A DNA stretch of 46,412 nt from IMG/VR virus record IMGVR_UViG_3300042477_000093, positions 1 through 46,412 of that record; one strand, 5' to 3'. Below are positions 1 through 45,688 of the stretch, piece after piece. The notes under the pieces were generated by a model that saw nothing but the letters and a program-made list of their open reading frames with translations, searched no databases and was not told the DNA's origin. Position numbers and translations under genes: made by a program. This DNA is from a virus (taxonomy: Duplodnaviria > Caudoviricetes). Each line of letters starts with the position of its first letter. Positions within the stretch are counted from its first letter, which is position 1.

Positions 1-2
1 CA

Positions 3-293
3 CGACTCGTTCTCGTGGTATGGATCTCTCGGGTTCCTTGACTCGTTCTCATATATTGGTTCTCTCGCAACTGATGACTCGTTCACTTTCCGTGGTTCTC
101 TCAAAAGCTGTGACTCGTTCCCTGTTCCTGGTTTTCTTCCGGCTTTTGACTCGTTCATCACAAATGGTTCTCTTGGTCAACGTGACTCGCTCGTTGTCAT
201 TGGTTCTCTCGGATCTCCTGACTCGTTCTATGGTTTTGGTTCTATCTTGTTCGATGACTCACTCAATCCATTTGGTTCTCTTGGTGAGCGTGG
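3..293 (-). ncRNA. TIGR-like (tandem interspaced guide RNA) dual-repeat array, 8 x 36-nt units, probably continuing beyond the window edge
   Basis: Exact 36-nt period. On the + strand TGACTCGTTC-like repeats start at 3, 39, 75, 111, 147, 183, 219 and 255, and TGGTTCTCTC-like repeats at 21, 57, 93, 129, 165, 201, 237 and 273, separated by unique 8-nt segments. On the - strand the repeats end in TCA/CCA just before each spacer. The array begins at the stop codon (TAA-CCA) of the adjacent Nop-domain gene. Confidence 0.9.
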
Positions 294-1088
294 TTAAACA
301 GGTGATGGAATGAAATGAGCATGGCCCATGTGTGCAATCGGATAGGGCAGCGGAGGCTTCGTACCAAAGTGTGTCTCATACCATGCGCCATGGAGGTGGC
401 TAAGGAATAGCTTAACCGCATACCTTCTTGCCCTTGCATCGATCTGGCCTGGTGGCAGTAAACCATTCGATAGATGCTTGTAAGCTTCCGTGGTCTTGCC
501 TACCTTCTCCTTCAATTGCTCGGCCAGTTCCTTGTTATCACCACGCTCGTTGCGGGCGATCTCAAAGTTCTTGCGCTCCCTGTATATGTGACCGTAGTAG
601 CAGTCATCACGGCCAGAGAATTTCATGAAGGATTGGCCAGCCTTCCAGCAAAGCGTCTTCAGTCCTGCATTCCATGGGCGCTTCTGCCCCTTCTCCCATT
701 TGCTTGTGGGATCTAATCCAGCATAGCGCCAGATATGCCCAACGGTAGGAGCCTTCTCAATATCAATGTGCGCTAACAGCCCCGCGGAAATGACCGGGCC
801 AATGCCTACGATCTGCCGCATCCATGCGCCCATGACATGCGACTCAGTGTAGGAATCAAGCGCCTTCTTGATCTGCTCTTCCAGCCCCTTGGATTGGGAT
901 GCCAGCCAGCCGATCACTGCATTGGGCTCCATGGATTCATCCAGCGCCCGGACTTGGTTGGTGGAACGCTTACGGTCCTCTTGGGCAATGTAGTAGTAAT
1001 CGACCAAGAATCTTGCCTCGTCATCAGACAGCTTGGCGGCTGCGACTTTAAGGTCCTTGGTCAGCTTCATGATTGGTTCTAAGTTCAT
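294..1088 (-). CDS. tasA: TasA-like Nop-domain RNA-guided DNA-binding protein (IS110/IS116 C-terminal-like domain, no RuvC or HNH)
   Basis: 264 aa. N-terminal coiled coil, then GIGPVISAGLLAHIDI, IWRYAGL, WNAGLKTLCW and ARARRYAVKLFLSHL motifs of the Nop/Transposase_20 fold. No DEDD RuvC N-terminal domain. Directly followed by the 36-nt array. Confidence 0.85.
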   Translation of the reverse strand: MNLEPIMKLTKDLKVAAAKLSDDEARFLVDYYYIAQEDRKRSTNQVRALDESMEPNAVIGWLASQSKGLEEQIKKALDSYTESHVMGAWMRQIVGIGPVISAGLLAHIDIEKAPTVGHIWRYAGLDPTSKWEKGQKRPWNAGLKTLCWKAGQSFMKFSGRDDCYYGHIYRERKNFEIARNERGDNKELAEQLKEKVGKTTEAYKHLSNGLLPPGQIDARARRYAVKLFLSHLHGAWYETHFGTKPPLPYPIAHMGHAHFIPSPV

Positions 1089-1324
1089 AGTTTCCCCGCT
1101 AGGTTGAATGGGTCATGCCAACTAAATTCTTTGTATGTGTAAAGCAACTGATTAAATCGGACAGGGTGTTTGGTTGCTGTTACATAACCAAGCCCTGTCA
1201 GTACACGCAAACGCTCTGCCGCCGTGGTTCTTGAGACGCCAAAGTGTTTTGCAGCATCCTCTGACGTGAAAGGTTCTTTACGATCCTTCATCCACGCCAG
1301 ATAAGATTCATCGATGGGTTTCAC
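1085..1324 (-). CDS. winged HTH DNA-binding protein
   Basis: FTSEDAAKHFGVSRTTAAERLRVL HTH signature. Likely GTG start at 1324. Stop overlaps the tasA start (ATGA). Confidence 0.65.
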   Translation of the reverse strand: MKPIDESYLAWMKDRKEPFTSEDAAKHFGVSRTTAAERLRVLTGLGYVTATKHPVRFNQLLYTYKEFSWHDPFNLAGKL

Positions 1325-1541
1325 TGTTCCCCCTTGCTCGGATTGCTTGTGCGGCCACCTTTGTAATGTCTGACGCATATTCAGGATGTACAGCAAGCAC
1401 ATCACAAACCTTCGCACACGCCTCACGCTCTCTGGCTGCGACAAGGGCGGCGAAGCGTGTTACAGAACCTAATGGATTTTCGTCAGATCCGTAAGCCAAT
1501 CCAGCCTCCCGCGCCATGCGGATGATGTCTTCTCTGTTCAT
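1308..1541 (-). CDS. small phage protein, DIIRMAREA...ERxACAKVC...AIRARG family
   Basis: Paralogue of 1759..2013; ATGA-coupled to the upstream gene. Confidence 0.75.
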   Translation of the reverse strand: MNREDIIRMAREAGLAYGSDENPLGSVTRFAALVAAREREACAKVCDVLAVHPEYASDITKVAAQAIRARGNSETHR

Positions 1542-2255: not shown

Positions 2256-2501
2256 AGGCTCCCCCTACCCCATACAGGGTAGAGAGAGGAAGCCATCGGC
2301 GAATATCACCCCCCTTGCGGGGAAGATCCATGTGCAGGACGGGTTAGCTCCTACACCCCCGGGCTTGGATCTCCGGCGAGCCCCACGGATTAGCGGATTT
2401 GCACCGTCTCAGCTAGGCTGGAATACCGTGTCGCGGTTCAACTCCGAGCAGCCCCACTTGCGGCCCCTACTCTCGTGCGGAGTACGGTCGGCACCAAAAG
2501 A

Positions 2502-2652
2502 AAAACCCCAGCGATCTTAGGTAGGAGCGTTACCTCTGGCGGAGGCAGACTCAGGCGCTTTGAAAGAGAGAATTTCCCCCGAAGGGAAAACGCACTTCAT
2601 CATCAACGCCCCAACCTAAAAGCACTGGGGTTTTACTCTCTTTCAAAGCGCC
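2502..2652 (-). ncRNA. structured cis-regulatory RNA with alternative pairings (c4/CI antisense-like)
   Basis: About 30-bp stem 2502-2531/2605-2634, whose mismatches mostly become G-U pairs on the - strand. Perfect 17-bp inverted repeat 2554-2570/2636-2652 interleaved with it. Internal hairpins at 2533-2545 and 2573-2589. Confidence 0.6.
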
Positions 2653-4048: not shown

Positions 4049-4273
4049 ATGCTGGCATCAGAACTTATTCAGAAGCAGATCGACGCGCTCAAGGAAGTGA
4101 TCGCCAAGTTAGAGCGACTCAAGGAAGACGTGGAGCCCATGAAGCTTGATGAGGCAGAGGAGCTATGGGATTCCATTGACATGGATACCTTGAAGAATGC
4201 TCACAACTTTGGTGACTTCATAGAGATAGTGAGGAAGGTATCTGCTTACTACAACATAGGAGTTAGGCGATGA
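4049..4273 (+). CDS. hypothetical coiled-coil protein
   Basis: Starts just after the previous stop; ATGA-coupled to the next gene. Confidence 0.6.
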   Translation: MLASELIQKQIDALKEVIAKLERLKEDVEPMKLDEAEELWDSIDMDTLKNAHNFGDFIEIVRKVSAYYNIGVRR

Positions 4274-4485
4274 GTGAAAACAAAAATGCAAAGACACCAG
4301 CAGATGGTGGGCCAGCGTTTCCAATCAAAGGTCCAGTAATGACTAGCGATGAGCAAGGCCTGACCCTGCGTGATTACTTTGCAGCTAAGGCGATGCAAGC
4401 ACTGGCGCAGGGGAATTATTTTGATGCAACCGCGAGGCAGGCTTACATGATTGCAGACGCGATGCTGAAAGCGAGGGAGCGATGA
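4270..4485 (+). CDS. small phage protein (GLTLRDYFAAKAMQ...IADAMLKARE family)
   Basis: Recognisable phage motif; paralogue at 6019..6234. Confidence 0.8.
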   Translation: MSENKNAKTPADGGPAFPIKGPVMTSDEQGLTLRDYFAAKAMQALAQGNYFDATARQAYMIADAMLKARER

Positions 4486-4856
4486 GCAGAGAAGCTATGC
4501 AAATGGCGCTTGAGGCGCTGGAGAGCGATCCAACGAGTCTTGCTTGGCTTATTAGCAAAAAGCAAGCCATCACCGCACTGCGACAAGCACTAAAGACAGA
4601 TCAAGAGCCGGTGGCGTGGATCAGCGATAGCCCCACAAAAGGAAACGGAAAGCAATTACATTGGACTAAATCAGAAGCTTGGAGATGGTCAAGCAATATC
4701 ACGCCCCTCTACACCGCACCACCAAAGCAATGGGTTGGGCTGACTGATGATGATGTTAGTTATTTCCGGTATCAAGCAACTTTCTGTGATGAATTTGACG
4801 CAGCGTTTATGGCCGAGCTTATTGAGAAAGACTTGAAGGAGAAAAACCATGGCTGA
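4482..4856 (+). CDS. modular small protein (ALEALE/QEPVA/PLYTAPP + KQWVGLT..KEKN)
   Basis: Shares modules with the adjacent paralogues. Confidence 0.8.
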   Translation: MSREAMQMALEALESDPTSLAWLISKKQAITALRQALKTDQEPVAWISDSPTKGNGKQLHWTKSEAWRWSSNITPLYTAPPKQWVGLTDDDVSYFRYQATFCDEFDAAFMAELIEKDLKEKNHG

Positions 4857-5109
4857 AAACAAAACAGCAAAGACACCAACAGATAGCGGGGTAGGTTTTA
4901 TCGACGGTGTTTGGTATGGGCCAGGGCCTACGGCGTGGCAGTGTCAATGCGGCAAACCGTATACGGTTACTTGTATTTCAAGCAAACCAGCTAAGCAATG
5001 GGTTGGGCTGACGGATGAAGAGGTTAATGAGCTGGTTGCGCGGTTCAAACGGTATTCGTATGTATTGCTCCGTGAAGTCGAAGCCAAGCTAAAGGAGAAG
5101 AACACATGA
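4849..5109 (+). CDS. modular small protein (ENKTAKTP + CxC insert + KQWVGLT..KEKN)
   Basis: Shared modules; RBS lies in the upstream repeat. Confidence 0.75.
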   Translation: MAENKTAKTPTDSGVGFIDGVWYGPGPTAWQCQCGKPYTVTCISSKPAKQWVGLTDEEVNELVARFKRYSYVLLREVEAKLKEKNT

Positions 5110-5396
5110 GCACAGAACCCGAAGCCCTGCGGCTGGCTGATGCGCTAGAAGAACTTGACGTGCAATTCAGTCACACGGGTCTATGCGGAGAAGCCGCCGA
5201 CGAACTGCGCCGATTGGCGCTGAAGCAATGGGTTGGGCTGACGGATGAGCAAGTTGAGGATGAGTGGGAACGCATTACTGGGCACAGTATTTTTGGTGGT
5301 GCTCGGTCAGAAGGACGATCTATGTATATCTCGCCGGATGAGGTGATTGAGTTTTCCCGAGCCATTGAAGCCAAGCTAAAGGAGAAGAACACATGA
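5106..5396 (+). CDS. modular small protein (PEALRLADAL..ELRRL + KQWVGLT..KEKN)
   Basis: Shared modules. Confidence 0.8.
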   Translation: MSTEPEALRLADALEELDVQFSHTGLCGEAADELRRLALKQWVGLTDEQVEDEWERITGHSIFGGARSEGRSMYISPDEVIEFSRAIEAKLKEKNT

Positions 5397-5629
5397 GCAC
5401 AGAACCCGAAGCCCTGCGGCTGGCTGATGCGCTGGACGCTGAGTTTGTGCAAGGACGAATAAGCAATAGCACGGGCAGGGAATCAGCCGTTGAACTGCGC
5501 CGATTGGCACTGAAGCAATGGGTTGGGCTGACGGCTTATGAAATACAAGAGATCCATTCAGAAAATCAGCACTGGGGTAATTTTGCTTGCGCCATTGAAG
5601 CCAAGCTAAAGGAGAAGAACCATGGATAG
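5393..5629 (+). CDS. modular small protein (PEALRLADAL..ELRRL + KQWVGLT..KEKN)
   Basis: Same scaffold as 5106..5396 with different inserts. Confidence 0.8.
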   Translation: MSTEPEALRLADALDAEFVQGRISNSTGRESAVELRRLALKQWVGLTAYEIQEIHSENQHWGNFACAIEAKLKEKNHG

Positions 5630-6026
5630 AGAAGCTATTGAAGAGGCGATAGAGGTGCTAGAGGACGCAAGCGCAGAGATGCTGATGGAAACAGGCGATG
5701 AAAATTACTACATCGAAGCCATCGCCGTTTTGCGCCAAGCACTAGAGACAGAGCAAGAGCCTGTGGCGTTTATTAATGTGGAAAAGCAAAAACTTGAGTG
5801 GGCCAAACTTACATCGTGGCATACGCCAACAATAGTAAACCTGCCAAAGATTCCACTCTACACCGCACCACCAAAGAAAGAATGGGTTGGGCTGACGGAT
5901 GAGGAGCGCCATGGCATTCGGGAATGGCAAAGGATTCAAGAAGAGCTCGGGCCTGTGTGGGCACCCATGATGCTGTATTTATACGAAGCCATTGAAGCCA
6001 AACTCAAGGAGAAGAACCATGGCTAA
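5622..6026 (+). CDS. modular small protein (AIEVLE/QEPVA/PLYTAPP + EWVGLT..KEKN)
   Basis: Same architecture as 4482..4856. Confidence 0.8.
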   Translation: MDREAIEEAIEVLEDASAEMLMETGDENYYIEAIAVLRQALETEQEPVAFINVEKQKLEWAKLTSWHTPTIVNLPKIPLYTAPPKKEWVGLTDEERHGIREWQRIQEELGPVWAPMMLYLYEAIEAKLKEKNHG

Positions 6027-6234
6027 AACAAAATACGCATTCCCACATGACGTAGGACATCTGCATGAGCCAAACACAGCAGGGATGGCGCTCAGAGATT
6101 TTTTTGCCGCGGCTGTAATCACCGGCATCTTTTCAGGCAAGTGGGGCCAGGTGCCCAATCAAAAGCCAGAGGTTGCCTTTGCAGATATTGCATACCTTGT
6201 GGCGGACGAAATGCTTAAACGGAGGGAGCGATGA
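6019..6234 (+). CDS. small phage protein (GMALRDFFAA...VADEMLKRRE family)
   Basis: Paralogue of 4270..4485; AAGGAG RBS. Confidence 0.75.
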   Translation: MAKTKYAFPHDVGHLHEPNTAGMALRDFFAAAVITGIFSGKWGQVPNQKPEVAFADIAYLVADEMLKRRER

Positions 6235-7243: not shown

Positions 7244-7871
7244 AGCACAAAAGGGATTTAGCCCTGCACTAAAACAAAGTAACAACCCGCACTTCCGGTC
7301 TAAGTACGCAGACCTTGCCACGTGCGTTGAAGCAGTGATTGATGCGCTGAATGACAACGGCATCGCATTGATGCAAATGACGCATGAGTGTCAAGATGGC
7401 GTGACAGTTGAAACAGTCTTTGTCCATACATCAGGCGAACTGTTATCCGCGGGCAAGCTTCATGTACCAGCAGCAAAGCATGATGCTCAGGGCTATGGAT
7501 CGGCATTGACGTACGCACGTAGGTACTCACTCATGGCGGCTTGCGGTATCGCTCCAGAAGATGATGACGGTAATGCGGCTGTGAAAACTCCGCCACGTGG
7601 CGGAGTTATTTCTGCACCTCAGCAAGCCAAGCCGGAACCCAAACCTGAGCCTAAATCTCAAGAACCTGTTAAAGGTATGGCGGAAGTTGTTGATTTTGCT
7701 ATGAATATGTTCATACAGTTCTTGCCCAAGGCAAATACTGAGGCGGAACTAAACACGTTCTGGAAGGACAACAAAGAGGCAGTAGCAAAGATCAAGGCCC
7801 ACGATGAGTCGCTGTATGTGGACCTGTTAGCTAAGTTCAAAGCACGTAAGGATGAGATAAATGGAAACTAA
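7215..7871 (+). CDS. erf: ERF-family single-strand annealing protein
   Basis: NPHFRSKYADL, QGYGSALTYARRYSL, GIAPEDDDGN motifs. Confidence 0.92.
   Translation: MKQIAEALVKAQKGFSPALKQSNNPHFRSKYADLATCVEAVIDALNDNGIALMQMTHECQDGVTVETVFVHTSGELLSAGKLHVPAAKHDAQGYGSALTYARRYSLMAACGIAPEDDDGNAAVKTPPRGGVISAPQQAKPEPKPEPKSQEPVKGMAEVVDFAMNMFIQFLPKANTEAELNTFWKDNKEAVAKIKAHDESLYVDLLAKFKARKDEINGN
7583..7612. repeat. dispersed palindrome, copy 1 (inside erf)
   Basis: GAAAACTCCGCCACGTGGCGGAGTTATTTC; perfect 22-bp palindrome at 7586-7607. Confidence 0.9.
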
Positions 7872-10027: not shown

Positions 10028-10985
10028 CATCGCATCCTATAGAGATCCTTTACTCTGGTTCACAGTAAACGATTGCTACAAGAAAGCTAAGAACCCCAAG
10101 GACCTTGTATTCGGCATCGTTGACCAAGGCTCCATACCTCAGCATAGAGCCGTAGAAAAGACTGGCTTCGCAGACCAGATCCGTTATGTATTCATAGGAT
10201 CAGTGGACGCCCGCGGTGCTTGCTGGGCCCGCCACCTGGCGCAATCTCTGTATCACCATGAGGACTACTTCCTGCAAGTAGACTCTCACAGTTGGTTTGA
10301 TCAGAACTGGGATGAGACTTGCATAGCCCTTATGCAAAGTAACTTCACGCCCAACCCAAAGAAACTCTACTCTTGCTACGCCCGTGGCTTTGAGTTCATC
10401 GATGGCAAGCCTACCGATACTTCGTTTACCAAAGACCTTATCTACTCCAAGATCAAAGAAGGTGAGAAGTTTAAGGACGCCGACCCGCTCCTAACCTTTA
10501 CCTCCGATGTGATGAAGTCTGACTTCCCTGTGCCAGCGTGCCACGTAGGCGCCGGGTTCATCTTTACCCTTGGCCAGTTCGTTCATGAAGTCCCATACGA
10601 TCCCGTGCTGTACTTCAATGGCGAGGAACAGAATATCGCTGTTCGTGCTTACACCCATGGCTATGATGTCCTACACCCACCCCTTGCCCCCGTGTATCAC
10701 TTCTATGGAAGGAATAAAGAGCTGAGGCACTGGGCATCTGAAGATGATGAGATGCGTACCGTGAGGTGGTGGGACATGGCCAAGCGCTCCAACGAACGCA
10801 TGGCCGATCTGCTGTATCACAAGAAAGATCTAGGGATCTATGGCCTTGGTAAGGTTAGAACCCTGAGAGACTACGCAACCTTCTGCGGGATAGACTATGA
10901 GAACCGGGTGATAGCACCTTCCCCGGCTAGTCCTCCTCCCCAAGGTACCGCGCCTCCTCCAACAAGTACTCCCGCTTCGGGTTAA
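10011..10985 (+). CDS. GT60-like (Skp1-hydroxyproline/polypeptide) N-acetylglucosaminyltransferase
   Basis: TIFVSIASYRDP, GACWAR, LQVDSH..FDQNWD, EVPYDP..YFNGEE, RAYTHGYD, LGKVRTL motifs. Confidence 0.8.
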   Translation: MTIFVSIASYRDPLLWFTVNDCYKKAKNPKDLVFGIVDQGSIPQHRAVEKTGFADQIRYVFIGSVDARGACWARHLAQSLYHHEDYFLQVDSHSWFDQNWDETCIALMQSNFTPNPKKLYSCYARGFEFIDGKPTDTSFTKDLIYSKIKEGEKFKDADPLLTFTSDVMKSDFPVPACHVGAGFIFTLGQFVHEVPYDPVLYFNGEEQNIAVRAYTHGYDVLHPPLAPVYHFYGRNKELRHWASEDDEMRTVRWWDMAKRSNERMADLLYHKKDLGIYGLGKVRTLRDYATFCGIDYENRVIAPSPASPPPQGTAPPPTSTPASG

Positions 10986-13900
10986 CGATAATCCCACGCA
11001 GCGCCCGGTCAGAATCTTTGACACGCTGTGCAAGCGATCGCTTGATGCTTTCCTTGCTGATCGGGTTCTCTGGGTTCTTCTCGTTAAACACTTCTATCTT
11101 GTCGTATATCTCACCGAACGCCGTGTAATCCCCGTTAATCTGAGCCAAGGTAACTTGCTGCAACAAACGCTTGCGGCGCTGATCCAGATCCTTGTCCATA
11201 CCCTTGATCTCTGCCATGGCCTCGTAGCCACGTGCAATGTCCACAGGCGTAAAGCCAAGGGCTTGCAAGAACAATCCCCATGTACTGACTTCACCAACAA
11301 TCGGATCGCCACGCAGGGTAGTCGCACCCTCGGTAGCCATACGACCAACCTTCATGAAGTCTTTGAGCACAGGCGGAAGCATGGCCTCAATGCCACGATA
11401 AGTATTACCGTCGTTGATCTTCTTGATACCGTCAGAGATGTTGACACCAATACCAACAAACGGGCCAGCCAGGTCAGTCACAAACTGGCGGAAGGCTTCT
11501 ACCTCATCAGCAGACTTATTGGAATCACGGAACCACATACCGTTCATGCCAACCCGGTTAGCCACGTCACCACCAAGAATCTCTGACACAGCACCCTTGC
11601 TCAGGATGCGTGCAGCATTTGATCCAAACAAATCTGCGATCGTATTCTTTGCGCTGTTGTTAAAGTCATAAGGCTCATCTTCATCATCGAACATGGCGTT
11701 CATCACGCCTTCGATAACCCAGTACATGGGCAAGCCTTCGTAACCAGCAAACAACCCGGTCATGAATAAGATGCCGCCGAGACGCTTTTGTGCCTCACGC
11801 CTAACCTCTGGATCTGCATCACGTACAGCTTCATTCACTGTACGTACAAGCAGGTAGGTCATCTGCTGTGCATAGTTCTTGAACTGGAAGATGATCCTTG
11901 CGGTTGGTCCTTGCATGAACCGTGGCTTGGTCGCATTCGTATATTCAAAATGCGTTTCATTCACAATGTCCTTGGCCATCTGCAAGGCAACGTCAGGTGT
12001 AAGCCCACGCTCCTTGGCTAGCCGATAAGCCGCAAGCGCAGTGATCTGCCGGTTAAATACCTCAGCCTGATTGAATGCATAACCAAGCCCGTAGGTAACT
12101 TTCTGCACCGTAGTGAATGACTTATTACGCATGACAGAACCAAGGCCGCCCTGCAACACATCAGAAGGACGCTCAGCCAATCCTGCTAGTGACAGGGTCT
12201 GGGTACGATTTAGCGTGCCATCTTCATAAAGCTTTTGCATGGCGCCAAGCTCTTCCTCGCGGCGCTTTCTTTCTCTGTCTGAGATTCCTTTCTCATCCAC
12301 GCGTTCCTGCAAGGTGCGGATCACATCATAGAATCCACGACCCTTACCGATGCCGCTGGCAAAGAAATCCTTGCTGGCCTGCGATAGCGCAGAGAAGGTC
12401 TTGCCGTATCCGAACTTACCGCCAAGGTACGGGAACGCAACCATGGGCGTCTGTGCAATGTTGACCAAAGCAGACGCTGGTGCAGTAAGGAAGTAAAGGA
12501 ATGAGAAGCTTGTTGCCCAACTGTTGAAGCTATTCACATCCTCCGGTGCATTGACCCACTGCTTACGACGAAGCAATTCATCAAAGTAACGATCAGCCTC
12601 TACGCTTGGATTCTCTTCCTTGTACTTTCTCGCCTCAAGAACCAAAGCCTCAAGTGAACCGTTATAACGCACACGGGCAAGATGATAGGCGCCATGGAAG
12701 GATGTTTCTGCAAACGCACGTAGCGCATCAGGACTGTAACCAGCTACCTTCTTACGATGGATGAAATGCTTTCTGGCGGACAGGTCTGGCTGCATGGTAA
12801 GGAACATTTGCCAGATGTTGTCTTTGAGAGCTTCCTTGTCACCATCCATGCCATCTACTAGATCCATCATCTCCCGAACAAACCCGGTCATGGGTATACC
12901 CTGGGAGATCATCTCTCTCGTCTTGACGCCACTCTTGTGCTTGATACCTTGCTTGTTTAGCTGGTCAATAAACTGCCGCTGGTCATTGCGGCTTTCAAAC
13001 ATATAGTACTCGGGGACCTTCTTGCCTTCGTCATTAAAAGTATCAAAGGAAACCCAGTAGTCACCAAAACGCGCCAAGGGGAAGTAAGGCCCTGTCTCGC
13101 GGATGCGATTGAACTCTTGCTCAAGCTTTAAGAGTGCAGCCGTCTTAGGGCGACCCTCTTCCATGCTTTCATTGATACGCTGCTCAAGAGCCTTCTGATA
13201 TAGGTCTAGCGATTCCGCATAGTAATCACGAACCTCACGGTATATCTTCAGCGCCTCGGGGTTAGCAGAAACCTTCTCCCAGTTTTTCAATAACTCTGGG
13301 TTTTTGATTTCATCTAACCGTGTATCAGGATCGATGCCGGCAATTGTGGCGTCATGCATGACATCAGCAAGCGCCCTGGCCAACTCTGGATTCTTGTCAT
13401 TAAACGCAACCCATGGCGTAGCAATATCAGCCGCCTTGGTAATACGCGTATCTCGATAGGCAAGCATGTCATTGACCGCACGGTAAAACTTCTTGATCTG
13501 CGGTAATGCATCTGATGCTATCTCACCAAGCTGGCGCAGGTTCAATGTGCTCAGTAGGATGTCTGCTTTGTCAGTAGCAAGATCCTTGATGTAATCCCTT
13601 GTGTTGTTCTTGATCTGATTGAAGTCCGGTCCAGACTTCACCAGATTGTTCATGGAAGCTTCTGGATCTACATCAAGATTGGCTGCATTGAGGATGATCT
13701 CTTCAGACTCAACACGGTTCTCAAGAATGATCTCAGACTCAGGGCTCCATGTACCTTTGTTGAAGACTGATTTGATTTGGTTAGGTTCAAAAGCGTTCCA
13801 AGTCATGTAGCCGCTTTCGTAGGCTCCAAGACCATCGTACCCGCTACGCCTCGCCAGATTTATAAATGAATCAGAAGCTAGAAACTCATACGCAATCTTT

Positions 13901-16900
13901 TCATCGGAATCTTTGAGACCTATGTCCGTAGCTTCAAAAGTTGTGCCGTTCTCATCATTAATTCTATTTAGCGCCTCCTCTACCGTAGAGCTTTTTGATA
14001 GATCTATATCTTGCGGAACCATTAGAGGCATTTTTATGCTGAGGTATACAGGCATTATTTGAGAGGAATCTTTGCCGGCATACATCTGAGCAATATAAGG
14101 ATCTTCACTAAACCACGAACCTGCTGATTTGGTTGAAAACGCTTGGAAATCTTTGCCCTCAGTGCCGTGGTAAACCACAAGCGGCTTACCATCAGGGCCA
14201 ACAACTTTGCTATCACCAAACCATTTGTTAAATGCGTCGCTATGATCCAAGCCTGCTTCTATGTTGGCCTTGTCATAAGGCTGCTTGTATAGCGTTTGGT
14301 CCTTACGAACCCGAGAACCAATCTCACCTGACATGATCCGTTCAAAGACTTCCGCCTCTGTCTCGGTAATGCCAAGCCCCATGGCGTAGTCAGCAAGCTT
14401 CTTGAAGAACTCCTTGGTCTTCTGAAAGATCCTAGCCACAGCGCCCGCTGGCTGAAACTCACCACGGGTGTAATACTCAAACGCCCTGGCCACACCCTCT
14501 TCAAGCTTCGTATCCTTAGACTCTTTGCGATAGATCTGTTCGACCGTCATGCCATGGTCGTCTGGCCACTTGCGCTTAACCCAGTCTTTCGCTGAAGCCT
14601 CTGAAAGAATCCGCCACTCATCCGCGGTAAATAGATTCATCGACCGCAGCGCATGGATTACCTCGTGATGCAAGGTTCTCTTGATGCGCTCTGGGTTCTG
14701 TGCTGTTGATGACTTAGTACGTTTGGCAAGATCAATGGCTACACGTAATAGCCTGCCAGTTACCTTAAGGGTTTCGTTGCCAGTGGCGCCGATATCTCTT
14801 GTAACGTAGGTAGCCATCTCGCCCAAGGTATAACCTGTCTTGGTTCTCTTCGGGCGGGTGAACTCAAGGTTAAGATCCTTCAGGCCTAGTCTATCCAGCT
14901 CATCCCTGAACTGGGTAAACATATCCCGCTCTGCTTGTATCGCATTCTTTGGCAATACAGGAGCAGCGGTTACCGGGGGTGCAGTTACTTGCGGTACGGC
15001 AGGCGGAGCAGTTACGGCTTGGGTGACTGCGGGAATAGGACGCTGTCCGGCAGTTTCGCCAGGTCTAGCAACTCCCGCTTCGCTCTTGGGGACAGCTTCT
15101 GCCAAGCTTTCTTGAAGCGCAGCTTGTTCAGCATCGAGCCTTTCGCGCTGGGCGGCTTCGGCGGCTTCGGTAACGGCAAGCTCTCTTTCAAGTTCACTCT
15201 CATACTCCCTTATAAGCGGAATGATCTGCGACAGTTCATAGTCAATAATCTCAAGCTCTTGCTTGGTCGCATCAGTCAAAAGATCCTTGTCAGCCAGCCG
15301 CTCTTTAATCGAATTAACGGCAACCGTCTCTAGCGTTGGATCACGATCAAAGTTTGTGCTCTGCAATTCTGGCGGCAGCCATGCATCGAGATCACCATCC
15401 TTGACCATGAGATCCAATCCCTTGAAATTAGGATTGGTAGGATTGCCCGCCAGCGTGCGGAACTCGATGTCTGGCGATGCATCTTTGATGTCTTCGTAAG
15501 ATATCCTTCCCTTAAGCGCAGACCAAAGACTTCCCTTACCTTTTTCAAGCGCCTCCCTGCGGCCAAGCAATTCCTTCTCATACTCAAATACAGGAGCAAT
15601 CTCTTCAGGTAACGGTGCAGGACCAGTCTCTGGTGGTGGCTCTACAAACTCCGGTGGCCCAGGCTCTGGTGTTACAGGCGGCGCCGGCAATGCAGGCATC
15701 GATGTAACCGGCGGCACCGTGACTTCTGGAGTGGTTACTGCTGGAGTTACAGAAGGTGCTTGAGAAATTACTTGAGGTACTGATGGCGGTGCAGTAACAG
15801 CCTGTACAGGTGGAACTGTAGTAGGTGGAGCAGGTTGTGTTACCGGTGGCGCTGCCTGCTGTACTGGCGGCGCTGCTTGAATTGATGTAACAGGCGGTGC
15901 TACTGGTGGTGCTGCGGGCTGCGTAACCGCTGGCAAGGAAGCTTGCGGCGCAGCAGTAACAGGCTGAACCGGCGGAACAGCTTGCGGCATCTCCATGGCA
16001 GGAGTAACCGGCGGCACCGTTACTTGTGGCTGCGCTTGTGGCACTGCCTGCGCTACAGGTTGCTGCACTGCACCAACTTGCTGCGGTGCAACAGGCTCAA
16101 CAGCAGGGGGTGTAGGTGAAATAACTCCGCCACGTGGCGGAGTTTCCGGTGGTGTCTGGACCGGCCGTGTTCGATCGCCTACCGCTCCAAGCAATCCAGG
16201 GCCTGCACCAGCCGCTGCACCAGCCGCAAACGAGTTAAGGTATTTGTTTAAGTTTTCAGGAGAGAAGACCTGATAGTTTTCATCAATAATCTTAACGGCT
16301 GTGCTATTGATAATGTCTTGTGTAGCCTCGGTCAATCCTTCCTGTGCAGCAATACCAGAAGCTTTGGCACCGATACGCAGTGCTTCTTTGGTAAAGCCAC
16401 CACGCTCAAGGGCTTTCTCTACTAGCTTGGTGCGGCCATACAGACCAAGATCGCCAAGGATCTTGCCGGGTATATAACTCTCGATGAATGAGTTAGCCAA
16501 GCCCGTGGCCAACGCAAGACCAGGCTCTAGCTGTTTTGTTTCTTCAAAGATATTGCGGAATGATTCTGGCGCTGTCTGTAGATACGATGAACTCATCATC
16601 GCCAATCCGGCGCGGCCAGCAAGTGCATCCTGTGCAGCCTTCTCGCCTATGCGCTCAGCAACCTCTCTGGTGACACCGCTGCGTAGGGCTGTCTCTGCCG
16701 CTTCTTGTGCAATCTTCCTTGAAGCACCCCGCCCGGTGGCGGCCGCAATACCGCCAGGCAGCAGGGCAGAAGCAATACTAGGCAAACCTTGGCCAGCCTG
16801 CTCAACCGCAAAACCAAGGTATTGGCCAGGGCCTTCTAGCTTGGTTACATCTCTATATTGAGTGGGAAGCTCCTGCTCAATAGCCGCATAACGCTGGGCG

Positions 16901-17181
16901 CCTTTTCCTAAAAACTCCAGTGCTTTCTCTTCTGCACCACCAAAGCCTAGCTTTGCAAGGCCAGCTAATCCTAGAGCAGGCAAATCATATGCTGTGCCCA
17001 CAAGCATTTGCTTGGCACCTCTGGCAACAGCGTTGCTAAATACTTCTCCAATCCCTTGCGGTCCTTTGGGCTGGACCCCGGACATATCCACTAAACCACG
17101 GATTAGCTGATCACGCTCTTCATCGGATACACCCTCGGGAATGCGGAACCGCCCAAGGTTGGGGATGTTTACGATAGGCAT
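10927..17181 (-). CDS. large polyvalent internal virion/DNA-ejection protein (Pro-rich linker, HExxH module, ART-like module, LPD38-like C-terminus)
   Basis: 2084 aa, last late gene. TLHHEVIHALR; FNKWFGDSKVV..GKPLVVYHGT..PVYLSIK; helical C-terminal region typical of ejection proteins. Confidence 0.75.
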   Translation of the reverse strand: MPIVNIPNLGRFRIPEGVSDEERDQLIRGLVDMSGVQPKGPQGIGEVFSNAVARGAKQMLVGTAYDLPALGLAGLAKLGFGGAEEKALEFLGKGAQRYAAIEQELPTQYRDVTKLEGPGQYLGFAVEQAGQGLPSIASALLPGGIAAATGRGASRKIAQEAAETALRSGVTREVAERIGEKAAQDALAGRAGLAMMSSSYLQTAPESFRNIFEETKQLEPGLALATGLANSFIESYIPGKILGDLGLYGRTKLVEKALERGGFTKEALRIGAKASGIAAQEGLTEATQDIINSTAVKIIDENYQVFSPENLNKYLNSFAAGAAAGAGPGLLGAVGDRTRPVQTPPETPPRGGVISPTPPAVEPVAPQQVGAVQQPVAQAVPQAQPQVTVPPVTPAMEMPQAVPPVQPVTAAPQASLPAVTQPAAPPVAPPVTSIQAAPPVQQAAPPVTQPAPPTTVPPVQAVTAPPSVPQVISQAPSVTPAVTTPEVTVPPVTSMPALPAPPVTPEPGPPEFVEPPPETGPAPLPEEIAPVFEYEKELLGRREALEKGKGSLWSALKGRISYEDIKDASPDIEFRTLAGNPTNPNFKGLDLMVKDGDLDAWLPPELQSTNFDRDPTLETVAVNSIKERLADKDLLTDATKQELEIIDYELSQIIPLIREYESELERELAVTEAAEAAQRERLDAEQAALQESLAEAVPKSEAGVARPGETAGQRPIPAVTQAVTAPPAVPQVTAPPVTAAPVLPKNAIQAERDMFTQFRDELDRLGLKDLNLEFTRPKRTKTGYTLGEMATYVTRDIGATGNETLKVTGRLLRVAIDLAKRTKSSTAQNPERIKRTLHHEVIHALRSMNLFTADEWRILSEASAKDWVKRKWPDDHGMTVEQIYRKESKDTKLEEGVARAFEYYTRGEFQPAGAVARIFQKTKEFFKKLADYAMGLGITETEAEVFERIMSGEIGSRVRKDQTLYKQPYDKANIEAGLDHSDAFNKWFGDSKVVGPDGKPLVVYHGTEGKDFQAFSTKSAGSWFSEDPYIAQMYAGKDSSQIMPVYLSIKMPLMVPQDIDLSKSSTVEEALNRINDENGTTFEATDIGLKDSDEKIAYEFLASDSFINLARRSGYDGLGAYESGYMTWNAFEPNQIKSVFNKGTWSPESEIILENRVESEEIILNAANLDVDPEASMNNLVKSGPDFNQIKNNTRDYIKDLATDKADILLSTLNLRQLGEIASDALPQIKKFYRAVNDMLAYRDTRITKAADIATPWVAFNDKNPELARALADVMHDATIAGIDPDTRLDEIKNPELLKNWEKVSANPEALKIYREVRDYYAESLDLYQKALEQRINESMEEGRPKTAALLKLEQEFNRIRETGPYFPLARFGDYWVSFDTFNDEGKKVPEYYMFESRNDQRQFIDQLNKQGIKHKSGVKTREMISQGIPMTGFVREMMDLVDGMDGDKEALKDNIWQMFLTMQPDLSARKHFIHRKKVAGYSPDALRAFAETSFHGAYHLARVRYNGSLEALVLEARKYKEENPSVEADRYFDELLRRKQWVNAPEDVNSFNSWATSFSFLYFLTAPASALVNIAQTPMVAFPYLGGKFGYGKTFSALSQASKDFFASGIGKGRGFYDVIRTLQERVDEKGISDRERKRREEELGAMQKLYEDGTLNRTQTLSLAGLAERPSDVLQGGLGSVMRNKSFTTVQKVTYGLGYAFNQAEVFNRQITALAAYRLAKERGLTPDVALQMAKDIVNETHFEYTNATKPRFMQGPTARIIFQFKNYAQQMTYLLVRTVNEAVRDADPEVRREAQKRLGGILFMTGLFAGYEGLPMYWVIEGVMNAMFDDEDEPYDFNNSAKNTIADLFGSNAARILSKGAVSEILGGDVANRVGMNGMWFRDSNKSADEVEAFRQFVTDLAGPFVGIGVNISDGIKKINDGNTYRGIEAMLPPVLKDFMKVGRMATEGATTLRGDPIVGEVSTWGLFLQALGFTPVDIARGYEAMAEIKGMDKDLDQRRKRLLQQVTLAQINGDYTAFGEIYDKIEVFNEKNPENPISKESIKRSLAQRVKDSDRALRGIIVNPKREYLLEEARYLGEED
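16118..16146. repeat. dispersed palindrome, copy 2 (inside ejection protein gene, inverted flanks)
   Basis: Perfect AACTCCGCCACGTGGCGGAGTT at 16123-16144. Confidence 0.9.
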
Positions 17182-34109: not shown

Positions 34110-34381
34110 GAAGTATACCCGCCGCCACGCTCTTTGTAACGCTTAGCCAAGAGCTGTGCTTTTCTGGCTGACCATTTTCCAGCGCCGGTACCTTGAACAG
34201 CGGCGCTCTTAATCTGATTAAAAAGTTTTTTACGCATGGTTGGCTTGGTGTAATTACCAGCTTCATTCACCTTGCCTCCCTCCGCGTATTGCGTAAAGTC
34301 CGTGTCATCCCTTCGGGGCTTGACCTTGGCCTTCGGCATTTTGCTGGGATTGATTATTCCCATCCCCCGACTGCTTCGCAT
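34106..34381 (-). CDS. small basic protein
   Basis: YAEGG, NYTKPTMRK, WSARKAQLLAKRYK..GGGY. Confidence 0.75.
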   Translation of the reverse strand: MRSSRGMGIINPSKMPKAKVKPRRDDTDFTQYAEGGKVNEAGNYTKPTMRKKLFNQIKSAAVQGTGAGKWSARKAQLLAKRYKERGGGYTS

Positions 34382-37300
34382 TTGCGGCTCCTAATAGTGC
34401 GGCTAACCCAAAGTTGCCAGTATCTTGCAAAGGACGCAAGTAGCTGGGCGCCTTGAATAAATCAAATGGCCCAAACTCTGGTGCTAGCACGTTGGGCTGT
34501 GCGTAATCAACGTAAGTTTTCTGCTGCCCGGTGGCGGCTGGAATACCAAATACTGGGAAAGGCAAACCACCAGGCTTTGATGTAGTCGTCGGTGGCTTTG
34601 ATGTTGTTGTTGCTGATATAACCGGCGCCGTTGTGACTGGTAATGTGGTCACTGGCGCGGTTGTTGTTTGCTCGGGGATGCTAATCGCTGGCGTCGTTAC
34701 AGGGGGTATCGTTCCTGAAGTTGGAGGAGGCGTAACCGGAGGTATGGTAATCGTCGTTACTTGCTCCGTGGTTACAGGCTCCGTAGTCGTTACCAGAGGG
34801 ATGGTAATCGTTGTCGTTACAGGCGGCAACGATGTGGTCGTGATAACCATCGTTAGCGATGGCGTTTGCGTAAATGTCTCCGTTACAGAAATACTTGGAG
34901 TAATGGTTGCTGAAGCTGTAATTGTTGGCGCTAATGTTGGCAACTGAGTGATCGTTGCGGTAATGCTTGGCGTCAGTGTCTCAGTAAGGCTTTGTGTGAC
35001 TACCTCAGTAATTGATTCAGTGACCGATTGCGTAACCGTCTGAGTGATTGATTCAGTGACTGACGGGGCTACCGTTGCCGTTGGTGAAATGGTTTCCGTA
35101 ACCGAAACCGTCTGTGTAATTGAAGGGGTAATAGAAACAGTCTGTGTCTGTGACAGGCTTTGGCTTAGCGATTGGCTTTGTGACAAGCTCAATGACAAGC
35201 TATTTGCCGTGCTAAGGGATTGACTAAGCGATGTCTGCCTCGAAACTTCTTGGCTTAAATATGTTGATATTGAAACGCTTTCTGACAAAGACACCGAGTT
35301 GCTGATTGACTGCTGGGTCGATGTGCTAATTGAAATTGACTGTGACTTGCTAGCCTCTAACGATACTGATTGACTTAATGAATTGGAAATTGATATACCA
35401 ACCGCCCTATCTCTCTCAATTTGTTCGCTAACACTTAATGACTGTGACTGGAGAGCTGATAGTGATAATGACTGGCTAATGCTTTGAGCGACTGACTCGC
35501 TTAAAGAAAGCGATTGACTTACGCTTTGAGATAGAGCTTTTGACACAGACTGTGAAGCAGATAATGACTGTGACTGACTGACAGAAGTAGAAGCACTCAA
35601 GCTATTAGAGATAGATAGTTGCGTTGCTTTTGAAATTGACTCGGAAAGAGATAGCGACGTTGAAGCGGATTGGCTTGTGCTAATAGAAGCAGAGACCAAT
35701 CTCGATACTGATTGAGAGACTGATTCGGACGCGCTTAGCGATGCGGATATTGATAGGCCACGAACAATATCTTCGCTCATTTTTTGACTGAGGATAAGGC
35801 TTTGGGATACAGATGTGCTTAGCGCGGCAGATGTTGACTGGCTGAGTGAAAGCGATGTGCTGACTGACTTAGATACAGACTCTGAAACGGACGCAGAAAC
35901 CGATACCGCCTGCGATTGAGAGAGGCTTTGCGACAGGGCTATGCTTTGCGATGTGCTCTGCGATATTGCGATCTGTTTGCTTACTTCCTGCGACAAACTA
36001 ATACTTTGTGATGTTGATGCCGAGGTCGATGCGCTTACAGAAGCCGAAATGCTTGTTGCTTTAGATACCGACTCGCTTTGAGACGTTGACAAACTAACGC
36101 TTTGTGAAAAAGAAACTGATTTGGAAACCGCCTCTGAAGTGCTTATGGATGCTGATATTGAATTGCTAAGTGAAGTAGAAAGGCTTGTTGATTTTGATAC
36201 TGATTCACTTTGTGAAACAGATGTGCTTAAACTTTGCGACAACGATGTTGATTTAGAGATCGATTGTGACGTGCTTGTTGAAGCTGAAATACTTTGGGAT
36301 AGCGAAACTGATTTGCTAGTTGACTCTGATACGCTCACCGCCGTAGATATCGATTCCGACACAGAGGCTGATATTGACAGTCCTTTAAGCCTGTCTTTTT
36401 CCATTTGCTCGCTAACGCTTGCGGACAAAGATAGCGCCTCTGAGATAGACAGAGATTTACTAATTGATGTTGATACGCTCTCAGAGGACGAAACTGAAAC
36501 GCTTAGCGACTGTGACTTGCTTGTAGAAGTTGAAATGGACTCTGATGTAGATATTGATTGTGATACAGAGATAGATTTGCTTAATGAAGCCGATACGCTT
36601 TGAGACGTAGACGTAGATGCGCTTACCGATTGAGATAGGCTCGTGGATGTCGATAGCGACGCAGAGGTAGACACTGACGTCGATACGCTCTTGCTCAATG
36701 ATATGGATTTTTCAAGCTCAACCGTTGATACCGACTGCGAAAGAGAGATGCTTTTTGATTGAGATTCGGATACCGATACCGAGGTTGATGCAGATAACGA
36801 CAGAGACTGGGAGTAAGAGACAGATAGGCTCTGACTCTTTGATATAGATGTACTTACCGCGGCCTCTGATACAGACTGGCTAAGACTGATGCTTGTGGAC
36901 TTAGATACGCTAGCAGCAATTACGTCCGCAATCTTGGTGGTCACCTCAACCGTGGGCGTTGCAGTCGGCTTTACCGTGGAAACGCCTAGCTTAACCTGGT
37001 CGCCAACCTGCATAAGGTAGTTGTTAGGCGCCACACGGAGCATGGTGTACATCTGGCCATCGGTGCCAGTCACTACTGCATTGTCACCAATAATGGACGT
37101 AACAGTCCCGGCAACATTTGCTCTTGGTGTGATCGTGTCCAGTACGTTTAGCTGGCGGTCAGAAGCAAGACCCATGCTATCCATAAAAGTCTTGAAGTCT
37201 GCGTAAGTTATCTTTCCTTGGTCTAGTAATGACTTTGCGTTGGCTGCAATCTGAGCGTCTGTTTGAGCGTTAAATATTTGCTTTTGCTCATACAAGATAC

Positions 37301-40300
37301 CTTCATTGGTCTTAGCTAGCTCTTGCTTAAGTTGATTAAGTGTTATTTCATTGTTGCCAAGTCTTGTTATATTGGCTTTTATTTCCTCTGCCGTCGGATT
37401 TCTTCCAATCGTTGTATTGAAGGTTTCGACTAATTGATCGAATCTTTGGCCTTCCTGTGTTGCGTTTAATTTTTCTTGCAACTGGCCAACGCCCGAAAGA
37501 TCTTTTATTGCAAAACCAACTTCGTCAGCCGTTGGATTCCTTCCAAGTTGTCCTTGGTAGGCCTGATTTACAAGCGACAAATAGTCTTTCATTTCGCTCG
37601 GCGTTATCTGAACCGGCGTTGTATCAAGACTATAAATATTTACTTGCTGCCCAGCGGTTATATTTTGATTTCCAAGATCTGCTACATACGTCTGGCCGGA
37701 TGGTCCCTTCATAACAGCCGTATTTCCAATAACAGATGTTATGGTTGCCCTTGCTGTCTCTGGTATTAAAAATGGATCTTGGCTTATGGATAGACCAAGA
37801 TCGCTTGCATCTTTGATAACTTGCCCCTGACCTTGCGGGGAAAGAAAAACAGACAAAGATGCCCCGCCATGTCCAGCACCGCCTACGGTTGCAGCAATAA
37901 CGCCCGATGTCCAAAAATCATTTAGGTCTATGCTTTGTCCTAAGCCTTTTTGATTGAATACATACGAGGCGGCTTCTTCAACACCATCAACCGTTGCTTT
38001 ATACGGAAGTGATATAAGATCTTTAATTGCCGTCTTAGCTGATGGTACTAATGCTGCTATACCTCCGACTATTGTTTCAGCAATGGCGGCTGGCATAGCC
38101 CCTTGGCCAGCAAGGGAAGCGGCCTGCTCAGAGCTTAATCCTTGGTTAATAAGCTGAGAAATATTCTCTTCTGTGACCCCACCGTAATTCAGTGCAAAAT
38201 CTGTTAAAGCAGAGCCAAGAGCAACACCAGGAGCCGTGCCTATTGTCTTTAATGCTTTGCCCATTAAGGCAAATGAAATCATATCCTCTGAAAGCTCTTT
38301 GCCTGCCGTCCAAGCTAAGCTACCAAAACTCGTTGGGCTGTCACTTGCCCATTGCCATGCAGCTCCAAGTTTTGCTCCGGGGCCTTGAGCCTCGCTTATC
38401 TTCCCCATCCATTTGTTTGCCTCAGAAGCAAGGTCTGGCATCAAAGCGTCTGAAGAATCTGAAGCTATTTTTGCAATACCTCTAAGAGCTACCGCAACAT
38501 CGTTTGCAGCATCACCGGATACCACGGAGACTATACCGGCCCCTGCTCGCGGGAAAAGGCCAAGAAAGTTTGCGCTTAAAGAGTTTATGAAATTTTGCGC
38601 CGGTGAACCAATAGATTGTCCAGCCTTAATACCCTCTGATACAGCCTTGCCAACCTCGTCTATAAAAGTATTTGTTGGAAGCTGGGTTATGTTCTTACCT
38701 TTGTTAAATACCTCTACAACTTCACCCGGCAAAACAAACCCATCCTTCGCATTACCTGTGCGCAATAACTCGCCATTGGTGTACAAATAAGCTTGATAGC
38801 GTTGGTTAAATTTGTCGCCAGTCATGTCAACATTGGCTTTTGACATGACACGCTCAAATTCTTCTGGCGTCAGTATCCTGGTGGTTTTTCCTGTTTCTTG
38901 GTTGTAGCTTATGCCGTTTTTTGCGACCGCTTCTTTTTGTTGATCCCACCTTCCTACAAGATCTTTGGCCATCGCATCAGTCATGCCGTCAGTTTGCTTA
39001 AGCATCGCAACGGCTTGATCGGGCGTAACTTTACTACCAGGCGCGAAGTATTTTTCCGCCGTCGTTGTTAACTGCTTTTGAAATCTATCAACGTATCTTT
39101 GCTGGTCTTCTATTGCATATTTTTGAACGGCTTGCGGACTTGATCCGTAAAACAAGTCTGTTATATCTTTCCCGCTCGCATCTCTAGCCGCTTTAACATA
39201 CGGCGTTCCGTCATCATTAAGATCCCAAGATACTTGAGTACCTTTGCGATCTATGACATTCCATGAGCGTAACCCAGCTACGGCAGCCTGCGTGGCCTCG
39301 GACGAAGTTAATTCATCACCTGCTTTTATTGCTCTGTAATACAGAAGCTGTTGATTTGCTAAATCACCCTTAATGCCAGCCGCATCCATGGCGGATTGCA
39401 ACTGCGACTCCGTGGCGGCTCCATTGATGTAGTCCCTAGAAACATTAACGTAGTTGTTTCTAGCAGTGACTTGCTTATCAATATTGGAGATGTAGGTGTT
39501 GGCATCTGCCTCATCAAAGCCAAGTGATCTTAGTCTTTCTAGGGCGCCCTCTCTGGATAGATCGCTTCCTACCGCCGTGTAGTCCGTTACTACCTGTTGC
39601 GTGTTTTTTGCTCGGTCAACAAATTGTTGATTTGCAGCAAAAATCTCTGCAACCTTAGCGTCCGAATAGCCAGAGTTCTTTAACGCCGATGTAACGTCTT
39701 CTGGCTTCATCGTGCCACTGTTCATGGCATTGATAAGACCATTAACATACTGCGCCTGACCTGCACTCAATGCCGTTTGGATTGAGTTCCATTCGGTAGG
39801 TGTGTACACACGACCGGCAGAATCGCCTGACAGCATCAAACGATTGCCGTCATCATCAATTGTGTATAGCTCACCGTTCTTATCGACCGCCACTGCGCCT
39901 ATGGCTGTATTGGATTTGGCTGAATCCGGTGTTGCACCACCAGCCATCTTCCCTGCTTGCGCTTGGCTAAATCCAAGATTTAATAACTGATTAAACAGGC
40001 TTACCGGGTTGAATTTACCTGTACGCGCCGTATTAATCGCTTGGGATACGCCAATCTGTAGCAACGCTTTTGATGTTGGGTCTAGCTTCTGTGCGTTTGC
40101 TACTTCATTAATGCCTGTTGATATCGCAGCGTTAACCGCGCCGCCAAGCAATGTTGGTAACGGGTCCTGACCCTGCGCTATGGCATAGATTGCATTGGTC
40201 ATTGGACCTGCAAAAAGCCTAGCCGTTGCAAGCTTTTCTGCTGCCGTGGCCCCGCTAATGATGCCGCTATTGGCTAACTCGTTGGCTACCACATCGGTAA

Positions 40301-44645: not shown

Positions 44646-45566
44646 TCAGTTATTGGGGTGGGAGTCAATGAGCTTTGCGCGGATTAATGCAAGATCGTTT
44701 TCAGTGGGCTTTGAATCAATGCCGCCATATCTAAAACTATACCCAGCTAAACGCCCTTTTGTTAAATGTTTGCCGGATACCAAAGCCCTACGAAGGGTCG
44801 GCATTTTCATTCCGTAATGGCTCAGCACCGCAGTAAGGCTTGGGAATAAAATGCCATCAGGCATAACAAATACAGCTTTGCTCATCTTTTCTTTTGCCTC
44901 TTCGGTATGTTTACGTCCTAGCCAGTGCTTATGGCTACGCCCTGATTCAATATTTTCACGAATCTTTAAGAGCCCCTTTTCTGAAACCTTGCGACCTTCT
45001 GCTTTTGGCTTGCCCCGCTGCGCCGCACCAATCTTTGCTTTTGTCTCGTCTGATAGCGTTTTACCGTATCGGTAGTGGTTTTCCCCGGCGGTGGGCGTTC
45101 TGTTTTGTTTAATCTTTAACTTGGTTTCTTCGGTGTGCTTTTTCCCGACGCGCGGGTGGTTAAAGTAATCAGCAGCATAAAACTCTCGTAGGGTTTTAGA
45201 TATTTGTTTCTTTTGCATAGGCGTGACAGGAACGCCAAATTTAGGATGCTCTGGTCCAATTACCCCGCGCCAAGGCGCAACTGCCGCGTATCCACTGTTA
45301 TAGCAATGCGCTTTACCTACATGTTGTTGCAACCAATTATCTTCGACTCTCCAAAGCTCTATGTCTTGAGCAACCTCTTCAACAACTACAAACTCAAATT
45401 TATCTTCGCCGTATTTGTTCCACGATGCTTGCAGGTGCTTGCAATGGTGCCTGTTACCTCGAAGCAACTTACGGTGTTGCCTGAAGCGAACCTTCTTGTT
45501 TGTCGTGCTACCTACATAAAACTTGTTGTTGACCACGTTGATGATTTTATAAATGACTTGCTCCAT
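44646..45566 (-). CDS. free-standing GIY-YIG homing endonuclease with NUMOD3-like repeats
   Basis: VIYKIIN..NNKFYVGS..R...H; repeats GKKHTEETK, GKTLSDETK, GRKHTEEAK; GGAGG RBS before the ATG at 45566. Confidence 0.9.
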   Translation of the reverse strand: MEQVIYKIINVVNNKFYVGSTTNKKVRFRQHRKLLRGNRHHCKHLQASWNKYGEDKFEFVVVEEVAQDIELWRVEDNWLQQHVGKAHCYNSGYAAVAPWRGVIGPEHPKFGVPVTPMQKKQISKTLREFYAADYFNHPRVGKKHTEETKLKIKQNRTPTAGENHYRYGKTLSDETKAKIGAAQRGKPKAEGRKVSEKGLLKIRENIESGRSHKHWLGRKHTEEAKEKMSKAVFVMPDGILFPSLTAVLSHYGMKMPTLRRALVSGKHLTKGRLAGYSFRYGGIDSKPTENDLALIRAKLIDSHPNN

Positions 45567-45594
45567 GTTTCCTCCGTTACAAAGCCATAACCGT

Positions 45595-45623
45595 AATGTA
45601 CCGAAAGGAACTAACGATGTCAA
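45595..45623 (-). promoter_or_regulatory. sigma70 promoter of the GIY-YIG gene
   Basis: TTGACA-N17-TACATT. Confidence 0.7.
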
Positions 45624-45628
45624 CAAGC

Positions 45629-45655
45629 AAAGAAAAAGCCACCCGAAGGTGGCTT
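45629..45655 (-). terminator. rho-independent terminator after the major capsid gene
   Basis: AAGCCACC-TTCG-GGTGGCTT followed by TTTCTTT. Confidence 0.85.
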
Positions 45656-45688
45656 CCAAACCAAGCTAAGTGCTTGATTTTATTGGTA

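Follow-up and report, generated by a model that had tools for sequence, protein, structure and literature searches.

The locus and its protein

The window, by which is meant the whole 46.4-kb virus record analysed here, was detected in lake and wastewater runs and carries a compact set of minus-strand features at its first end:

1085..1444 (minus strand), upstream HTH gene with a 4-nt overlap with the tasA start
294..1088 (minus strand), tasA, encoding a 264-aa solo Nop-domain protein with coiled coil, HhH, wedge and C-terminal tail, and no nuclease domain
321..344 (minus strand), Y249 and H256 codons, a predicted guide-processing dyad
3..296 (minus strand), dual-repeat TIGR array of eight complete units (8-nt spacer A, 10-nt loop, 8-nt spacer B, 10-nt edge), truncated where the contig ends
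219..290 (minus strand), units 1-2, gene-proximal anchors in common with the closest relatives, unit 2 being identical in L001-L004 and L007
147..218 (minus strand), units 3-4, present in no other array and likely recent gains
39..146 (minus strand), units 5-7, present in other arrays too, with no target found
13..38 (minus strand), guide of unit 8, matching the Y-H-E-G-F codons of a Burkholderiaceae-prophage early gene
1..12 (minus strand), sequence of the last edge repeat and the first 2 nt of a ninth unit

The best sequence and fold matches of the tasA product are TasR and TasH, and comparison with the solved Tas proteins by sequence and predicted fold, as the initial annotation had proposed, shows homology across the Nop domain and bears out its assignment of the locus to TIGR-TasA. 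The clade itself is already in the published Tas catalogue, where close relatives of the protein appear under node28670 (Faure et al., Table S1); the natural targets are the new part. Neither a RuvC nor an HNH domain is present in the sequence or the predicted fold, in agreement with the earlier description of the protein as nuclease-free. Fold alignment begins at residue 65 of TasH and residue 110 of TasR, and only ~18 residues precede the fold in the window protein. A Ser-Gly motif with a catalytic wedge serine is the mark of IS110 transposases. The window TasA has neither Ser-Gly after its YAGLDP sequence nor an N-terminal RuvC-like domain.

Y249 and H256 are the predicted guide-processing dyad by alignment and by their 7-residue spacing, the same as that of SpTasH Y289/H296, for which a C-terminal Tyr/His processing dyad has been described (Zhou et al. 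2026, PMC13421893). H256, aligned to the SpTasH His, is invariant in 25 of 25 relatives; the tail that holds both residues is modelled at pLDDT <50. The upstream gene, whose HTH matches fall below Pfam cut-offs, probably forms one early operon with tasA and is at most a candidate part of the system.

Array anatomy

The 36-nt period is pronounced, with a lag-36 identity of 0.61 over positions 1-297 against 0.41 for the best lag in 2,000 shuffles. Spacer A of units 1-8 starts at minus-strand positions 290, 254, 218, 182, 146, 110, 74 and 38, and all eight spacer pairs listed in the initial annotation were recovered in this exact register. Its description of exact units built from two repeats holds for the period and fails for the repeats, which differ by 1-2 nt from unit to unit. 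As had been reported, spacer A is followed by A in units 1, 4 and 5 and by G in the others. The stop codon (296-294) of the 264-aa ORF (1088-294) sits inside the first, truncated edge repeat. At the other end, the array is broken off by the contig end within the ninth unit; arrays of the four closest relatives run to 28-40 units, and one contig of a run from which the window itself may derive extends 1,738 nt past window position 1. Assembled RNA contigs cover the array stretch, giving neither RNA ends nor strand.

A search of IMG/VR yielded 39 relatives, 35 of which were parsed together with the window. These 36 arrays comprise 755 units, 516 of them distinct and 488 with 8+8-nt spacers, the more distant arrays being incompletely parsed because the parser was built on the window's repeats. 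Spacers are thus variable within and between loci, counter to the invariant 'spacers' in related phages that the initial annotation had named as grounds for refutation. The window repeats are similar to those of SpTIGR, in which the two spacers together make 16 nt.

Pairing between repeat halves supports the assignment of edge and loop. In 342 of 344 close-clade units, the half-edges at the two ends, one ahead of spacer A and one behind spacer B, pair with each other, with 69 AC/GT, 256 GT/AC and no crossed combinations, counts that are not independent given the common ancestry of the units. Covariation of this kind is lacking between those columns inside a single edge repeat. Box C/D pairs are found in both repeats in addition to the edge covariation, the loop G3-C8 pair occurring in 322 of the 344. 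The half-edge pairing pins down the limits of each guide and is a sign that units travel as blocks from mid-edge to mid-edge. Closest relatives have units 1-2 and distal units in common and differ in the units between, a hint that new units may be inserted behind the two anchors, in a signal blurred by much exchange. The edge repeat of L008 unit 4 and of L015 unit 4 ends in G rather than A. The natural target has that G at its flank too, which may be a relic of acquisition; other sites do not show it. Several more distant relatives (L025-L027, L030, L032, L034, L037) carry guide units upstream of tasA or on both sides of it.

The target-reading rule

For target searches, the 488 guides of the window and its 35 relatives were pooled and read as spacer A followed by the reverse complement of spacer B. 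The arrays themselves contain evidence for this reading. Guides with A and B swapped occur in different arrays as six pairs within 2 mismatches, with none in four control arrangements, and six pairs show shifted overlaps across the A/B junction in this geometry, compared with 2, 2 and 0 records in the others. Members of the window guide-8 family are synonymous variants of the Y-H-E-G-F codons. Exact natural matches point the same way: with the six guides of the guide-8 (selection) family left out, five of 482 guides match at 8+8 with gap 0, and 0-1 do so in 35 other geometries or settings. By these computational comparisons, spacers A and B read opposite strands of one site, and the natural target is predicted to be 16 bp, contiguous and without a gap.

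The initial annotation had suspected a hidden target constraint in the nearly fixed ninth spacer base and had proposed 18-mer searches. Neither idea survives. None of the 488 guides matches in the 9+9 reading. Covariation between the ninth base and its would-be partner is absent (p=0.88), and that ninth base is the first of the SpTIGR-like 10-nt repeats; since no reading but the gap-0 8+8 one gives more than one exact match, the supposed constraint disappears. As regards a PAM, flanks differ among seven target sites, with a weak hint of a purine 5' of the spacer-identical strand (11 of 14 positions).

Matches in a prophage family

A single IMG/VR scan with the guide-8-family motif returned 33 loci, 27 of them in one gene family. 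Flanks of 1.5 kb around this first site, fixed before inspection, contain exact or one-mismatch sites of further guides. Across 58 loci, the 482 guides give four exact and seven one-mismatch matches, where controls average 0.03 and 1.9. In an extended set of 171 prophage loci (1.34 million distinct 16-mers), five of 482 match exactly, against a mean of 0.12 and a maximum of 2 in 200 re-paired controls; one-mismatch matches are not enriched there (10 versus a control mean of 6.6 and maximum of 13). Four exact sites lie within 1.3 kb of the first site and the fifth in an accessory region (numbers are relative to the first site unless a locus is named):

-1228, exact, ImmA/IrrE-like gene
-320, one mismatch, sigma-like gene, from a widely shared guide
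-239, exact, leader
+96, exact, same early gene as the first site (YHEGF gene)
+656, exact, next gene after the YHEGF gene
L092 653-668, exact, guide L010.2, starting at the predicted -10 box and reaching as far as the probable start codon of an HTH-hsdM/hsdS/hsdR-like operon

The fifth site is present in five loci, two of which are one contig. In the accessory region of the prophage, the surrounding stretch (L092 630-668) is predicted to be a leaderless promoter that serves an HTH-fused type I restriction-modification operon.

Window guide 8 has no exact site in the 171 loci, matching with one mismatch in three and two mismatches in four; sister guides in other arrays match the same site exactly. 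Separate acquisitions are suggested by the way the first site is matched, by guides of either A/B order and by guides whose register is shifted by 2 nt. A guide for the early region, at up to one mismatch, is present in 22 of 25 close arrays (13 of 25 when the selection family is left out; four arrays are near-duplicates) and in none of 11 distant ones. The L010 array and its exact target L086 have the same metagenome number in their record names. Targets account for only 16 of 333 close-clade guides, leaving ~95% unexplained, and were found for none of seven of the eight window guides. Four other IMG/VR scans and three host-genome searches gave no confirmed further target family.

The tasA genes of L020-L023 and L031 carry a ~48-aa insertion in the wedge loop. 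L020-L023 keep the same repeats, and three of their four arrays are without an early-region guide.

The target element encodes a serine integrase, DUF2924, sigma-like, Sak4, DUF669, helicase, primase, methylase, terminase and portal proteins. Genes for a capsid, a tape measure and a lambda-type tail are present in addition in a complete chromosomal copy, so the element is a temperate phage, not a satellite. Eight of ten genome records that hold it are titled Burkholderiales, Limnohabitans, Bordetella or Betaproteobacteria, so that by record titles its hosts are mostly freshwater Betaproteobacteria. It has only an endolysin homologue in common with the window, and its GC content is 53-60%; the spacers lie below this at 46%, which counts against the proposed targeting.

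A second target family is a candidate. L209, a 9.3-kb phage fragment with ERF, RecE-like and SSB-like genes by eye, has exact guide matches at two sites, of which one is the scan motif, and a further site with 2 mismatches (6164-6179, 7642-7657 and 7763-7778); alone, this stands at about p=0.2.

The phage and its possible host

A complete relative of the window phage measures 63 kb. By capsid protein it lies closest to three 65-kb freshwater isolates (75%), followed by HTVC023P-like phages (64-66%). Searches of Burkholderiaceae genomes for tasA (0 of 301) and for the capsid gene (0 of 251) came back empty, and the link to freshwater Burkholderiaceae as host is an indirect one.

Proposed mechanism and alternatives

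As guides of the phage and its relatives match a 2-kb early-gene stretch of an unrelated prophage family, the phage likely silences a rival virus in its host cell. The favoured interpretation, which we consider likely from the sequence comparisons, is that TIGR-TasA would act as a programmable roadblock on the early region of an unrelated resident prophage during infection. In this scheme, tasA and the array would be co-transcribed early and the transcript cut in the edge repeats by the Y249/H256 tail to give 36-nt guides. By analogy with published homologues, a TasA dimer would then bind both strands of the 16-bp site and block transcription of the prophage early operon. The apparently non-integrating phage could thereby prevent the replication of a prophage that resides in the same cell. 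Some relatives may also shut down the prophage-borne restriction-modification operon. TasA represses transcription in E. coli, a result that concerns stem-loop TasA and dead TasR, not the dual-repeat clade of the window (Xu et al., 10.64898/2026.09.09.750476). Most guides probably aim at other, unsampled mobile elements. The odds appear even for a fuller version, in which lake phages wield TIGR-TasA as an adaptive CRISPRi-like weapon against resident prophages, repeatedly acquiring 16-bp guides from the early operon and the promoter of restriction-modification cargo and inserting them as mid-edge-to-mid-edge units behind two anchors; this would constitute the first natural target map and array polarity for dual-repeat TIGR.

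That the prophage matches are a chance product of short words searched in large collections is very improbable and already largely refuted. Three other guide-family scans did give recurrent gene families without significant co-occurring guides, and unrelated viral DNA (2.28 million distinct 16-mers) yielded two exact matches among 482 guides, above the naive 0.26, one of low complexity and the other in L209. Yet ~0.2 million 16-mers of early region around the pre-chosen site hold four independent exact matches where 0.02 is expected naively and 0.19 at the unrelated-set rate (p ~5e-5), in one geometry and one phage clade only, although clustering near the anchor may be partly due to choosing loci via the anchor gene. 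Host chromosomal genes or kin phages as the main targets, with the prophage matches minor or incidental, are a somewhat less remote prospect, if still improbable. The large unexplained fraction of guides leaves room for them, and window guide 5 is exact in 6 of 151 Burkholderiaceae genomes and another guide family in 8 of 121. These chromosomal matches, however, fall in assorted unrelated genes, the exception being four in chemoreceptor genes, and none has another exact guide close by. No exact self or kin target occurs in the window or five related phage records. Tests of kin targets, array copies and a one-base overlap likewise failed for this clade. The initial annotation had foreseen guides against competitor or host genes; the exact prophage matches favour the former, and three pattern searches gave no support for host core genes. 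The four exceptions (L419, L423, L424, L426), half of the eight Limnohabitans-genus matches of one guide family, lie at the same place in chemoreceptor-like genes and are probably chance.

Two further alternatives accept the prophage as target and differ in what binding does. The guides may act on its free or incoming form, to exclude superinfection or in rivalry during co-infection, or the process they block may be replication or excision and not transcription. This is unlikely, while being the strongest of the competing accounts: matches fall on both strands and mostly within coding sequence, many target loci are viral contigs, some classed linear, and any process on the DNA might be blocked by a bound dimer that bends it (Faure et al., PMC12045711). 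Against it, the exact sites are confined to regulatory and first early genes and one predicted promoter, with none in integrase or late genes (late genes having been examined only in 68-72% relatives), and silencing by TasA has already been demonstrated (Xu et al., 10.64898/2026.09.09.750476). It is more doubtful again that TasA marks DNA for a nuclease, as the initial annotation had suggested, or for a recombinase in trans, so that targets are cut or rearranged. The phage does encode PD-(D/E)XK, Cas4-like and ERF proteins within 8 kb, and integrase assistance has been raised as a possibility (Faure et al., PMC12045711). The predicted structure, on the other hand, has no docking domain beyond the Nop core, an unsystematic look at the neighbours of tasA found no conspicuous partner gene adjoining it, and the prophage integrase has no homologue in the five related phage records.

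Comparison with known systems

Among the closest known systems, SpTIGR-TasH of Salicola phage CGphi29 (PMC12045711; PMC13421893; PDB 9W03, 9W04, 21KL) has ~27-31% identity to the window TasA. It differs in possessing an HNH domain, and for the window clade there are now natural targets. Dual-repeat TIGR-TasA (FpTasA; node28670, Faure et al. Table S1) is likewise a solo Nop protein with 36-nt units, but FpTIGR spacers total 18 nt as opposed to 8+8 in the window; no TasA is assigned a natural target in the accessible portions of Faure et al. (PMC12045711). Stem-loop TasA and dead TasR provide the precedent for nuclease-free RNA-guided repression, the mechanism proposed for the window too (Xu et al. 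2026, 10.64898/2026.09.09.750476). VIPR (Lopez et al. 2026, 10.64898/2026.10.15.759431), which an E. coli phage turns on a resident satellite, is alike in that an infecting phage silences a resident element by guides. Its protein and guide code are unrelated to TIGR-TasA, and its target is the satellite's recombinase, whereas guides of the window clade match a complete tailed prophage in its early genes. IS110 bridge recombinases (IS621, ISCro4) have an N-terminal RuvC-like domain, absent from the window TasA, and use one bridge RNA in place of a guide array.

Natural targets, the role of TasA and guide acquisition are listed as open in the sections available of Faure et al. (PMC12045711) and Xu et al. 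(10.64898/2026.09.09.750476), and no description of prophages as natural TIGR targets turned up in a literature search covering few subscription papers. Guides paired with matching sites in a named kind of element would give a first concrete answer to what TIGR-TasA guides aim at. The pairs fix the target rule and point to silencing of prophages by phages, possibly including anti-restriction silencing. The question of TIGR-TasA targets is thereby made testable with one gene, one guide and one reporter. Swapped or shifted guides for one site, together with half-edges that travel with the unit, place direct constraints on guide gain.

Other features of the window and its relatives

Nested inverted repeats with 26-33 nt arms and terminator-like hairpins lie between divergent gene blocks at window 2499-2652 and may represent a regulatory RNA or an origin. 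Runs of short paralogous early genes at 1308-2013 and 4270-6234 form repeated modules that are reshuffled among relatives. The window also encodes a 2,084-aa DarB-like antirestriction protein (10927-17181) and a 2,417-aa ORF (34305-41558) that has no PHROG match and contains a region of degenerate repeats at ~35-36.8 kb. A homing endonuclease adjoins the capsid gene (44646-45659), and the large terminase of one relative (L398 14174-17632) contains an intein and LAGLIDADG domains.
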